NCBI GenBank assembly: GCA_963807605.1
Contig: CAWECG010000001.1
Location: 160,001 to 224,000 of the forward strand
Direction of reading: 5' to 3'
DNA length: 64,000 bases
DNA from: Candidatus Bathyarchaeota archaeon
GTDB taxonomy: Archaea; Thermoproteota; Bathyarchaeia; 40CM-2-53-6; RBG-13-38-9
The position numbers and the translations under genes are program-made. This document shows, piece after piece, positions 49,117 to 55,009 of this stretch. Position 1 is the stretch's first letter; each line of letters begins with the position of its first letter. The notes under the pieces were generated by a model that searched no databases, was not told where the DNA came from, and saw only the letters and a program-made list of their open reading frames with translations.

Positions 49117-49803
49117 TTACTTTTTCTCAACGAGTTCAGCAAAGCCGTCCTCTAGGTGGCCTCTATCTCCAAGCCAGATCTTATGAAAATCCCTAACGAC
49201 TAACCTTTTCTTGAATAAGGGACCGTCGAGCACGAAGGTCTCGTACTCTCCTCCCTCGCCCGAGAGATTCACCCCGTACTTGTCTCTCAAGAGAATTAAC
49301 TCTTTGATTGCCTCTTGGTCAAGTTTCCTGCCAAGCCATTTCTGGCCTAGACCTAAAGCTGCTACCGCAACTATTACCGGGTTAAGCCCTGACATCAATT
49401 GATCATGGAGAAGCTGTAGAGGATCCAGCCCCCATAATGGTGTGAAACACTCCATTCCAAGGTATCTCGCCGTCTCCTCTATCCTTTTTTTCTGGTATTG
49501 GCTTGCAATAGCTCCAGCAGCAATCCCGTCTATCCCGAAGCGCTTCTTAACTTCTCCCAGATGTCTTTTGAGTTCGTCCTTTTCTTCTTCTCCCTGCCCC
49601 GTTATGTTATAGGTTAAGATTGGCAGATCCATAGCTTCGGCTTGTAGGGATGTCCATTGAATGCAGGGGTGGTGGAAGAGCCATGATTCATCGCTTCTAG
49701 GGATAAATGTGATCAGGTGCTCGATATCGAAATTCTGTTCTCGGGCCTTCATGATTGTGTAGCAACTGTCTTTTCCGCCGCTGAAGAGGACTCCTACTCG
49801 CAT
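49117..49803 (-). CDS. dph6: Diphthine-ammonia ligase
   Basis: SGGKDS, GEGGEYETFV. Confidence 0.9.
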   Translation of the reverse strand: MRVGVLFSGGKDSCYTIMKAREQNFDIEHLITFIPRSDESWLFHHPCIQWTSLQAEAMDLPILTYNITGQGEEEKDELKRHLGEVKKRFGIDGIAAGAIASQYQKKRIEETARYLGMECFTPLWGLDPLQLLHDQLMSGLNPVIVAVAALGLGQKWLGRKLDQEAIKELILLRDKYGVNLSGEGGEYETFVLDGPLFKKRLVVRDFHKIWLGDRGHLEDGFAELVEKK

Positions 49804-50265: not shown

Positions 50266-50623
50266 GCCATGTTTCAGAGGGAACGTCTTCAAAGAGTTCT
50301 CCCCATTTTTTTTGACGTGTGATTATAACGTCTCCGAGCTGGTGGGCATGAAAGATAATTCGAAGAAACGCGCGCGCTTCCTGAACACCTAATCCACTAG
50401 CGCCCATGCTCGTAACTGTACTGTCTGTCTTCACAGTAGAATCCCACATTGGGATGGCAGGCCATATGCATTATCCTACGGGCGAACGCTCCGCAGACTT
50501 TTTGCGTGCACAACAGAAAGTCAAAAGCCTCGAGGTAACGTCTCACTGAAAAGACAAACTATAAAAGTTTACATGATCTTTTGGAGCTAGCCTTTAGCAA
50601 ATTTAGGACTGGAGTAAATAGAG

Positions 50624-52841
50624 ATGCCGCATTACAAGTCAACTGCAGAGATAATGAAGATAATACAACACAAGGATCAGATCCGAAAGATCTAGGCAAC
50701 ATTTGCCTAGTCCGGAATATATTGGTATTATCGCCCATGTTGATCATGGCAAGACTACCATGTCTGATTCCTTGTTAGCCTCCTCCGGTTTACTTTCTCC
50801 ATCCGTAGCCGGAAGTGCCTTGGCTCTTGACTATATGGAGGAGGAACAGAAAAGACAGATGACTATCAAAGCTGCTAACGTCAGTCTCCTGCATGAAAAG
50901 GACGGAGTTTCCTACGTCATTAACCTCATCGATACACCGGGACACGTCGACTTCTCAGGTAGAGTAACAAGATCTCTGAGGGCGATCGACGGCGCCGTTG
51001 TGGTTGTTGACGCTGTTGAAGAGGTCATGGTCCAAACTGAGACAGTGACGCGGCAGGCCCTTGAAGAGAGGGTTAGACCTGTCCTCTACGTCAACAAGAT
51101 CGACCGGCTCATCAAGGAGCTCAAACTAAGCCCGGAACAGATCGAGGAAAGAATTACCAGAATAATCAGGGATTTCAATCATTTAATTGAGATGTATGCT
51201 GAACCTGAGTTCAAGAACAATTGGAAGATTAGTTTTGCGACCAACACGGTGGCTTTGGGCTCAGCCAAGGATCGTTGGGGTTTCAACTCTGAGATTGCTA
51301 AAAAGAAAGGAATCAAGTTCTCTGACATTGTCGTTGCCTATGAGCAGAATAAGGTTGAGGAGTTGAGGGAGAAGGCTCCGCTTAACGAAGCCATACTGAA
51401 CATGGCTGTCGAGTCGATGGCCCCACCAGATGTTGCCCAAAAATACAGGATCCCAAAGATCTGGAAGGGAGATATCAACAGCGATATCGGCCAGGCGATG
51501 ATGAATTGTGATGACAATGGCCCGGCTGTGATGGCCGTCTCAAACATTGTCGTCGATCCTCAAGCTGGGGTCGTTGCAACGGGTCGTCTCTTCTCCGGAA
51601 CTCTGCGTGAAGGGGATACGGTCCATTTGGTTGGGGCCAAGTCCGACTCTAGGATTCAACAGGTCTGTATATACATGGGTCTTTACAGAGAGATAGTCGG
51701 CGAATTAACGGCTGGAAATATCCCAGCGCTATTAGGGCTTGATGCTGCGAGGGCTGGTGAGACGATCTCCTCGGCAAAAGATGTGGCGCCTTTTGAAGCT
51801 GTCAAGTATGTTACAGAGCCTGTTGTAACGCTGGCTGTCGAGCCGAAGTACAGTAGAGATCTACCAAAGCTTGTTGATACTTTGAGAAAGCTCTCGATCG
51901 AGGATCCTAACTTGGTCACAACGATCAATGAGGAAACTGGGGAGTACCTCATTGCCGGTATGGGCACGCTACACCTTGAGATAGCGACGACCTTGATTCA
52001 AAAGACAGGTCTCCAGATCACTATGTCGAAACCCATCGTCATCTACAGAGAGAGTATCAGGAAGCCTGCAGGCCCAGCCGAGGGTAAGTCGCCTAACAAA
52101 CACAGCCGGATCTACATCGAGATTGAGCCTATGAGTGAAGAAATTGTGAACATGATTAAGACAGGCGAGATCGGCGAGTATATGGACAAATCGGCAATGG
52201 CAAAGATCCTGAGAGAACACGGCTGGGCCCCTGATGAGGCAAAGGGTGTCTGGAGCGTAGATGAGGGTTGCAACATACTCACCGAGGTTACCAAAGGAGC
52301 CCAATTCCTACAAGACGTCAAGGATATGGTCGTCGCTGGTTACAGGTGGGGGATAAAGGAAGGACCATTGGCATATGAGCAGATTAGAGGAGTGAAGGCC
52401 AAGATTGTCGATATCCAACTTCACGAGGATCCGGTTCACAGAGGACCTGCCCAGATAATGCCCATGACAAGGAGAGCCTTCTTTGTCGCCTTCCTCTCCG
52501 CAGAGCCGACACTTCTTGAGCCGATTCAGAGGATGACTGCGAAGGTCGCTCCAGACCTTCTAGGATCAGTGACCAGCGTAATTAGTCAGAAAAGAGGAAA
52601 GGTTGTCTCAGTGGATCAGAAGGAAAACATAGTATACATAGTAGGCGAGATGCCCACCGCTGAGACTTTTGATCTCTCTGAGTCCCTTCGAAGCGCAACC
52701 GCGGGGAGGGCTTTCTGGGGTCTAGAGTTCGCCAGATGGTCTGCTGTTCCAGCGTCATTAATCGGTCAAGTCATTCAAGACATTAGGAAGAGGAAGGGGT
52801 TGCCGCCTGAGCCCCATAAGGCCCAAGACTTCATGGAGTAG
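50624..52841 (+). CDS. fusA: Elongation factor EF-2, join(50624..50687,50719..52841), 728 aa after splicing
   Basis: MPHYKSTAEIMKIIQHKDQIR|NIGIIAHVDHGKTT, DTPGH, NKID, diphthamide loop HEDPVHRGPAQ. Confidence 0.93.
50688..50718 (+). other. 31-nt bulge-helix-bulge (BHB) mRNA intron in EF-2
   Basis: Central helix TCCG 50682-85/CGGA 50713-16; 3-nt bulges AAA 50686-88 and ATA 50717-19; intron stem ctaggcaa/ttgcctag. Confidence 0.88.
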
Positions 52842-53231: not shown

Positions 53232-53732
53232 TCATTTCTCCCTTAGCTTTATTGCTGCCACAAGTGTGGCGAGAGATAGGCCGATGACCGTGCCTCCTGC
53301 AACAAGTATCTGAAGTATTGAGGTTAGAGGGATGGTGACTAGGGGGATGGTTTGTGGTTTGTTGATGAAGTGAGGGTCATGACAGCCGGTGCAATTGATA
53401 GTGATAATCCCGTGCTTTCCGTCTTTCCAAGCTTGGTAGAACTCCGCGTGGCACTGGGCACAGAGAGTAGGGGATTGCTCTATGGGAATTACTTTTCCAT
53501 TCTTGAGTGTCAACGTTGACATATCGGGGCTATGGCATGTTGTGCAGGGGGACGTGGGAAATCTATGCCTATCCATGCTCATGGGATGACATCTGGTACA
53601 GTCCACATTATCAGGATCAGACGCCTTGAAGTACTGGCTCTGCAACACGATGACAGCTACAACTAGAATAAATGCAAGAAAAATAACGATCCTTTTCAGA
53701 TCTGTTGGAGTTCTTGCTTCGAGCCTTGTCAT
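53232..53732 (-). CDS. Membrane-anchored tetraheme cytochrome c
   Basis: CTRCH, CTTCH, CAQCH, CTGCH; N- and C-terminal hydrophobic segments. Confidence 0.88.
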   Translation of the reverse strand: MTRLEARTPTDLKRIVIFLAFILVVAVIVLQSQYFKASDPDNVDCTRCHPMSMDRHRFPTSPCTTCHSPDMSTLTLKNGKVIPIEQSPTLCAQCHAEFYQAWKDGKHGIITINCTGCHDPHFINKPQTIPLVTIPLTSILQILVAGGTVIGLSLATLVAAIKLREK

Positions 53733-53748
53733 AATTGCTCACTATGAT

Positions 53749-55009
53749 TCAGTGTTTGAGCGCATTTGCCATAAGATCCATCACCGAGGTTACCTTGACT
53801 CCAAGGTTATAGTGTTCGTTCAGATCATTCAGTTGTGAGCGACAATTCTCGCAAGCGGACGCGACGGCGTCTGGCTTCGTCTCTCTTATCTGTTCAGCCT
53901 TCCTTCTTCCAGTCTTCATCCTCAACTCTTTGAAATCTGGTACTGCTACAACACCGCCACCAGCTCCGCAGCACCAATTGTATTGCCTGCTTGGGGGGGC
54001 CAGTTCTCTGAACTCCTTCACAGCGGCTCTTAGAACGGTTCGAGGCTCTTCGTAGATCCCGCCGTTTCGTCCAAGCTGGCAAGGATCGTGATATGTTACG
54101 ACTTCAGGGTTTGCTGATGGGTCGAGCTTGACTCTCCCGTCTTGGAGGTACTTGGCCATAATCTCCACGATGCTCTTGACTTGGAAGGGGAAGCTTCTGT
54201 TGAACCACTTTGATGCGAACTGCTTCATCACGCGGTAGCCATGTCCACACTCAGTCATGACGACGCTCTTTACATTTAACGTCTCGGCTTCCTTTATGAT
54301 CTGGCCTGTCAGGACCTTGGCGGCTTCAATATCTCCTAGAAAGTAGCTGTAGTTGGCTGCGTCAAAGAGGCTTAGCGACCAGCTATCTTTGGTATAGTTG
54401 AAGATCTTCGCAACCGGCATTATCGTGTGTGCTCCTGCTATGGGAACGTACAGCATATCCGCACCCCGGTTCTTGACCGGGATTCTTGCTTCTGGATCCG
54501 CAGTCTCTGTCTGAAGCTGGGTTTCCAAGGTCTTAATTTGTTCCAGGTAGAGATCTTCGTATTGTGAGATGTTCTTTGCCTTCTCAACCCCGACTTGAGC
54601 TATCATTGTGAGCATCTCAGGGGCTGTGCCTCCGGTCTTGCAGAGGAATCTTCCGGCTGAGACTGGCCAGGGAGGATTCTATGCCGAAAGGGCAGTGGAC
54701 AGTGCATCTTCTACACAGAGTGCACTCGAACATGGCATCCGAGACCTCTTTGAAGTTCTCATCGTTAAGCTCCATGGCTTTGAAGAACTTCGGGGCTAAT
54801 CTTCCTGCGAGGGTGTAGTATCTTCTGTGGACTCTGCGCAACAGGGCAAGCTTGTAGGCTGGTGAGTGGATCGGTGCATCGGTCTCGTAGTACATGTGGC
54901 AACGTTCTGTACAGGCACTGCAACGGGTGCAAGTGTCCAAGTGGTAGAATGCCTGTCTGGTCAGTCTCTTCTCAAGTGTCGCTGCAGTCTCTTTTCTGTT
55001 GTCAGTCAT
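53749..55009 (-). CDS. DsrK/HdrD-like Fe-S protein; apparent +1 error near 54665 splits it
   Basis: CTRCSACTERC and CTLCRRCTVHC; TECGHG; CCG domain YHDPC...WCCGAGGG...CENC. Confidence 0.85.

Follow-up and report, generated by a model that had tools for sequence, protein, structure and literature searches.

Here, we describe a 31-nucleotide (nt) insert near the 5' end of the gene for elongation factor 2 (EF-2) in a Candidatus Bathyarchaeota archaeon (GenBank assembly GCA_963807605.1), located in a 64,000-nt stretch of contig CAWECG010000001.1 (positions 160,001 to 224,000, forward strand), hereafter the window. The insert (window positions 50688 to 50718; all EF-2 features given below are on the + strand) is very probably a genuine messenger RNA (mRNA) intron of the EndA/RtcB type. 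It forms a bulge-helix-bulge (BHB) element that is conserved and covaries in relatives, its excision restores the reading frame, and both splicing enzymes are encoded in the genome; from these observations we infer cleavage and ligation in vivo. The intron belongs to a rare known class, the mRNA BHB introns, but in a new host gene.

Reading frames and predicted splicing

The EF-2 gene, present as a single copy in the genome, starts at ATG 50624 with a frame of 23 codons (translation MPHYKSTAEIMKIIQHKDQIRKI) that is closed by TAG at 50693 to 50695. Its main open reading frame (ORF; 50703 to 52841, 712 amino acids [aa] from TTG) lies in a different frame, and the coordinates that a first-pass annotation of this DNA had given for the break hold. 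All five domains are encoded (GTP_EFTU, EFG_II/III/IV, and EFG_C) and the ORF is otherwise intact; for the 712-aa ORF, Pfam matches GTP_EFTU only from profile position 6 onward.

The archaeal splicing endonuclease cuts each bulge between bases 2 and 3 (PMC2738675). Recomputed under this rule, removal of 50688 to 50718 gives AUC CGA AAU AUU GGU (R-N-I-G) and a protein of 728 aa (21+1+706), exactly as previously claimed, and restores QIRNIGIIAHVDHGKTT (QIR|NIGIIAHVDHGKTT). The intron is positioned 21 codons into EF-2, between Arg and Asn of the conserved IRNIG motif and just before the P-loop. Exon 1 (50624 to 50687) consists of 21 codons (MPHYKSTAEIMKIIQHKDQIR) and the first base of the Asn codon, and exon 2 (50719 to 52841) of the last two bases of that codon, then IGIIAHVDHGKTT to the stop codon. 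The spliced mRNA is predicted to read ...CAGAUCCGAA joined to AUAUUGGUAUU... (a 31-nt skip; also ...AUCCGAA|AUAUUGG), with DQIR/NIGIIAHVDHGK as the peptide predicted across the restored junction.

Within the RNAfold minimum-free-energy structure of 50670 to 50732, the exon strand UCCG (50682 to 50685) of a central 4-bp helix pairs with the intron strand CGGA (50713 to 50716). The helix is flanked by a 5' bulge AAA (50686 to 50688; predicted cut between 50687 and 50688) and a 3' bulge AUA (50717 to 50719; predicted cut between 50718 and 50719), so that on each strand a 3-nt bulge sits 3' of a 4-nt helix segment, the canonical BHB topology. The inner intron hairpin (50689 to 50712) has an 8-bp stem (CUAGGCAA/UUGCCUAG) that is preceded by GA/UC and a bulged U and capped by a CAU loop, while an imperfect outer exon-exon helix is formed by 50676 to 50681 (5' strand) and 50720 to 50726. 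The helix, bulges, and 8-bp intron stem had been proposed from the letters alone and are borne out by RNAfold, and the central helix also pairs in 49/49 relatives.

In the proposed mechanism, exon-1 UCCG in the pre-mRNA would pair with intron CGGA between the AAA and AUA bulges, the remaining intron forming a hairpin. A two-subunit EndA would cleave both bulges, each after its second base, and RtcB would then ligate the exons to yield the mRNA for the 728-aa EF-2 and probably circularise the excised intron. Three codons beyond the 5' splice site, a conserved in-frame UAG (50693 to 50695) would end translation of unspliced mRNA, leaving a peptide of only 23 residues.

Comparison across Bathyarchaeia

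Relatives and a species-level genome collection together yielded 110 EF-2 loci, and the P-loop region was recovered in 96. At exactly the same codon, 64 of these loci carry an insert, corresponding to 49 distinct Bathyarchaeia EF-2 sequences; this alignment of EF-2 5' ends, which the first-pass annotation had proposed as a check, is the source of the counts below. The inserts are 25 to 54 nt long, with interiors that vary in sequence and length between conserved flanks (...AUCCG-AAA-G ... C-CGGA-ANA-(U/C)AU...). Their lengths modulo 3 are 0, 1, and 2 in 13, 19, and 17 sequences, respectively, and the bulge cut rule restores [I/V]-R-N-[I/M]-G in 49/49. The 5' bulge is AAA in 42 sequences, AAU in 4, and UAA in 3, and the 3' bulge is ANA in 47/49.

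Covariation was scored on a MAFFT alignment of the 49 distinct sequences. The central helix pairs in 100% of them; CG has become UA once, as a compensatory change, and UA has become UG six times. Below it, inner pair 1 is G-C throughout, and inner pairs 2 to 4 are altered on both sides in 18, 16, and 12 sequences; two of the six outer-helix pairs also change on both sides. The covariation score was 0.283 versus 0.166 in shuffles (0/500 reached the observed value), every slid register scored lower, and double-sided changes were counted in 67 cells versus 26.5 in shuffles (again 0/500). Ile-Arg is encoded by AUC CGA/CGU in 47/49 intron-bearing genes; among the 30 distinct genes that lack the intron, by contrast, five Arg codons (AGG, CGC, CGU, AGA, and CGA) and varied Ile/Val codons occur. 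We attribute the frozen AUC CGA codons to exon sequence that must satisfy both coding and pairing.

The first exon carries a coding signature of its own, with column entropies by codon position of 0.61/0.40/1.18 across the 49 sequences. Its peptide, (M/V/L)PR(Y/F)K(S/T)T.EI.KI..NK(D/E)QIR, shares homology with the N-terminal end of EF-2 proteins whose genes lack the intron. To judge from this signature, exon 1 is translated and evolves as coding sequence. A Shine-Dalgarno-like GGAG (50611 to 50614), read from the sequence, lies 9 nt before ATG 50624, and most relatives have a similar purine-rich GGAG-like motif 6 to 12 nt ahead of the exon-1 start codon. A putative TATA-box-like element, TATAAAAG (50560 to 50567), is found ~57 to 64 nt upstream of the start codon.

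Inside each of the 49 introns, the exon-1 frame meets a stop codon (UAG in 41, UAA in 4, and UGA in 4), which in 45 lies exactly three codons past CGA, compared with 0.35 stops per intron in composition-matched shuffles; across the set, unspliced mRNA would give only a 23- to 26-residue peptide. Inner positions 4 and 5 pair in 30 and 29 of 49 sequences (ungapped register). Because the U and A of the stop are retained even where their stem partners fail to pair, the pattern suggests that selection acts on the stop itself, in a count that the kinship of the sequences inflates.

In three relatives (G016, G025, and G033; loci L030 and L031, one family of the same taxonomic order), the EF-2 match lies in frames of 1,085 to 1,270 aa and starts only at query residues 15 to 17. 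These long frames may represent an intein or a fusion; the P-loop motif used for locus collection did not recover them.

Distribution and history

An EF-2 protein tree was built with a quick IQ-TREE run on 78 distinct sequences. None of the 15 outgroup sequences (which include Methanomethylicia, Culexarchaeia, Nitrososphaeria-labelled, Marsarchaeota, and Desulfurococcales-labelled records) has the intron, and it is also lacking in two Bathyarchaeia clades, one of Hecatellales type and one comprising L085, L086, and L093-96. Its carriers are a hot-spring clade (L088-92, ~63% identical to the query) and the large clade holding this genome, the latter with two nested intron-less lineages (L042 in one case, L068-71 together with L082 in the other). 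The predicted intron is confined to Bathyarchaeia and common to deeply diverged clades. Presence and absence on the tree require a minimum of 4 changes, a pattern consistent with an old gain followed by several precise losses, in at least two nested lineages.

Splicing enzymes

The genome (2.65 Mb, 47% G+C, 94% estimated completeness) encodes RtcB (575 bits) and two EndA paralogues. The first paralogue is nearest to crenarchaeal catalytic alpha subunits (2cv8, 3p1z_B, and 2zyz_B); the second has diverged, aligning with fused enzymes over their structural half and matching beta-subunit models weakly. As a pair, they would fit an (alpha-beta)2, crenarchaeal-type enzyme. Enzymes of this architecture are described as having a broad substrate range and accepting relaxed BHB motifs (PMC5829648). 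Only 31 tRNA genes were detected in the genome with ARAGORN, most with predicted introns at assorted positions; the tRNA genes seem to be heavily interrupted and under-detected.

Weighing the intron against other explanations

Several observations weigh against an intron. The outer exon-exon helix, already called imperfect when it was first noticed, contains a bulged A, and RNAfold favours AUCAG/UUGGU with a 5-nt 3' bulge in its place; across the 49 sequences, only 73.8% of its cells pair. So weak an outer helix makes the element a relaxed hBHBh' motif, which requires a broad-specificity enzyme. The fold of the single sequence is modest relative to shuffles (z = -2.17; 8/200 shuffles fold equally well), so it is the conservation and covariation in relatives that place the BHB beyond chance, and there, as the sequences are phylogenetically related, fewer independent events have occurred than the counts of covarying cells imply. 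The available public sequencing runs, of which only two matched (~5% of sampled words each), gave no cover of the EF-2 junction. The spliced-junction pattern was found at 34 loci in metagenome contigs. All of these are EF-G/EF-2 genes that lack the intron, belong to other organisms, and sit on genomic contigs of several kb; a complementary DNA (cDNA) of an intron-bearing lineage was not among them. Four of the runs, in which relatives' contigs sparsely covered 50664 to 51664 with no joint at the intron, are uninformative either way.

Two explanations would bring the broken frames to a functional protein by translation instead of splicing. Recoding (programmed frameshift, stop readthrough, or ribosomal bypass as in T4 gene 60) would join the frames directly, and a stop followed by a stable hairpin right after the break is a layout like that of bypass signals; a frameshift window also formally exists in this genome, where the downstream frame is open from 50664. 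Across the homologues, however, insert lengths fall into all three modulo-3 classes, 13/49 inserts are in frame with an internal stop, and stops in the exon-1 frame occur in all, so that no single recoding event fits every sequence. A frameshift would also swap the conserved IRN for unconserved residues (e.g., ...RSRQHLPSPEY), and a ribosome landing at CGG 50713 would continue in the wrong frame, as AAU AUA UUG. Covarying stems and a fixed 4-bp helix with two 3-nt bulges are a requirement of EndA, not of the ribosome, and we consider recoding highly improbable. The other translational route treats exon 1 as a decayed remnant or separate small ORF and takes the functional EF-2 to be a truncated protein initiated at TTG 50703, with the N-terminus MPSPEYIGII... 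and the peptide MPSPEYIGIIAHVDHGK. This is the 712-aa ORF with intact P-loop that an automatic gene caller would report, yet 33/49 sequences offer no ATG, GTG, or TTG before the P-loop in that frame, so internal initiation is no general solution, and in most of the remaining sequences the sole candidate start is the Met of the N-M-G motif itself. With the third-position-biased variation of exon 1, the homology of its peptide to the N-terminus of intron-less EF-2, and a GGAG-like motif that stands ahead of exon 1 and not of the TTG, truncation is very hard to credit.

An assembly or sequencing artefact, or an inactivated pseudogene, might be suspected in a metagenome-type assembly of five contigs. 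The same site is nevertheless interrupted in dozens of independently assembled genomes with differing insert sequences, and the interrupted gene is the only EF-2 copy and is otherwise intact through its five domains; the probability of such an error is negligible. A self-splicing group I or group II intron was rejected, the insert being only 31 nt long and without an Rfam match in the window, in which neither ARAGORN nor Rfam found anything.

Other BHB inserts in the genome

The first-pass annotation had also anticipated that other genes of this lineage hide BHB introns, and five further genes (cbf5, aIF5B, rnhB, argF, and nadE) have inserts with a perfect 4-bp helix, two 3-nt bulges, and an inner hairpin. 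In all five, rule-based excision restores a conserved motif and makes Pfam profile coordinates contiguous over the junction. By this count, the genome has at least six predicted mRNA BHB introns, EF-2 included.

The cbf5 gene carries a 19-nt insert (locus L151, 236 to 254; contig C3, 1143681 to 1143699, + strand) between GGTL and DPMVTG, with DKCLD in exon 1 and TruB_N 17-149 in exon 2. The insert, CCCU-AGA-GGCUGAGAAGCC-GGGG-AGA, is excised to restore AGHGGTLDPMVTG and splits the catalytic Asp codon (G|AC), the site of the experimentally studied crenarchaeal cbf5 intron (PMC2738675). A 37-nt insert in the P-loop of aIF5B (L153, 1738 to 1774; C1, 148014 to 148050, - strand) separates GH from VDHGKTT, exon 2 matching GTP_EFTU from position 12. 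In rnhB, encoding RNase HII, a 26-nt insert (L152, 36 to 61; C4, 128220 to 128245, + strand) lies at GVDEAGR|GP, with exon 2 matching from RNase_HII position 9, and excision restores MVEIAGVDEAGR|GPLLGPLV. The 31-nt insert of argF (ornithine/aspartate carbamoyltransferase; L154, 755 to 785; C1, 88030 to 88060, - strand) falls at STRT|R, between OTCace_N 1-52 and 54-148, and folds with z = -3.05. Finally, nadE (NAD synthetase) has a 32-nt insert (L155, 563 to 594; C3, 875125 to 875156, + strand) at KSEMMLG|YFTKFGDG, between NAD_synthase 2-136 and 138-242.

A candidate 45-nt BHB insert with internal stops (C1, 584759 to 584805, + strand) joins two coding-like frames of ~150 codons each (...EAIRLAE|NNLNVEAHYQTTG...). 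The genome-wide BHB scan that had been suggested at the outset fared no better than random in its homology-free version, in which structures joining open or coding-like frames numbered 4,902 observed versus 5,060 expected, with similar results at all stringencies. When limited to ANA/ANR bulges, the scan gave 46 versus 32, by a method that cannot discriminate short exons.

Relation to known systems

A BHB intron in the cbf5 pre-mRNA was reportedly described by Watanabe in 2002. Such introns, 16 to 44 nt long, interrupt the gene for the pseudouridine synthase aCBF5 in Desulfurococcales and Sulfolobales (Yokobori 2009, PMC2738675). Like them, the EF-2 intron is short (25 to 54 nt), lies in coding sequence, has a relaxed BHB with the same cut rule in a host with hetero-oligomeric EndA, and appears to be an ancient gain with secondary losses. 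Unlike them, it resides in EF-2 of Bathyarchaeia, between Arg and Asn before the P-loop, and is not homologous; it falls outside the cbf5 intron family, being in a different gene of a genome whose cbf5 has its own insert at the classical site. Splicing of cbf5 has been shown by cDNA and in vitro cleavage, whereas that of EF-2 is predicted.

Beyond tRNA and rRNA, the archaeal splicing endonuclease also acts on a BHB element in the 5' untranslated region (UTR) of an mRNA, that of Haloferax volcanii HVO_1309 (Schwarz 2020, PMC7714728). In contrast to EF-2, that element is in an untranslated leader, leaves the frame uninterrupted, and is served by a homodimeric enzyme with strict BHB specificity. 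Besides their own 5'-UTR case, Schwarz et al. gave the cbf5 mRNA intron as the only one previously reported (PMC7714728). An archaeal EF-2 study that included Bathyarchaeota does not mention an intron (Narrowe et al. 2018, PMC6143161), and a full-text literature search found no report of an EF-2 intron.

With archaeal pre-tRNA introns at canonical and non-canonical positions, the EF-2 intron shares the hBHBh' geometry, the cut rule, and the use of EndA and RtcB; it differs in having protein-coding exons and a conserved in-frame stop. Eukaryotic HAC1/XBP1 splicing (IRE1 plus tRNA ligase/RtcB) is likewise spliceosome-independent and removes a short, frame-changing mRNA intron, but relies on the IRE1 endonuclease and on twin stem-loops rather than a BHB, and has an established role in stress response where any such role for EF-2 is speculative.

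Implications and neighbouring genes

If spliced as predicted, an essential single-copy translation GTPase would depend on tRNA-splicing enzymes over much of a widespread archaeal class. EF-2 is a widely used phylogenetic marker, and automatic gene callers are expected to give truncated EF-2 or split or frameshifted genes. The introns would also illustrate how mRNA introns are gained, kept for long periods, and lost precisely, and they prompt one to ask how splicing can be accommodated when transcription and translation are coupled. A regulatory link between EF-2 output and EndA/RtcB activity is speculation. A wider proposal, which we regard as doubtful, is that Bathyarchaeia keep a set of EndA/RtcB-spliced introns in core genes (EF-2, aIF5B, cbf5, RNase HII, OTCase, NAD synthetase, and probably more) and that the EF-2 intron, with its selected stop, would act as a checkpoint tying synthesis of the translocation factor to tRNA-splicing capacity.

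The divergently oriented upstream neighbour of EF-2 encodes a diphthamide synthase (window 49117 to 49803, - strand; Pfam Diphthami_syn_2, 214 bits). The family is named after an enzyme of diphthamide biosynthesis, diphthamide being a modified histidine of EF-2. Downstream of EF-2, the window encodes a small multihaem c-type cytochrome, with CXXCH motifs in pairs, together with an HdrD-like protein of the CCG-domain type (53232 to 54615, - strand).

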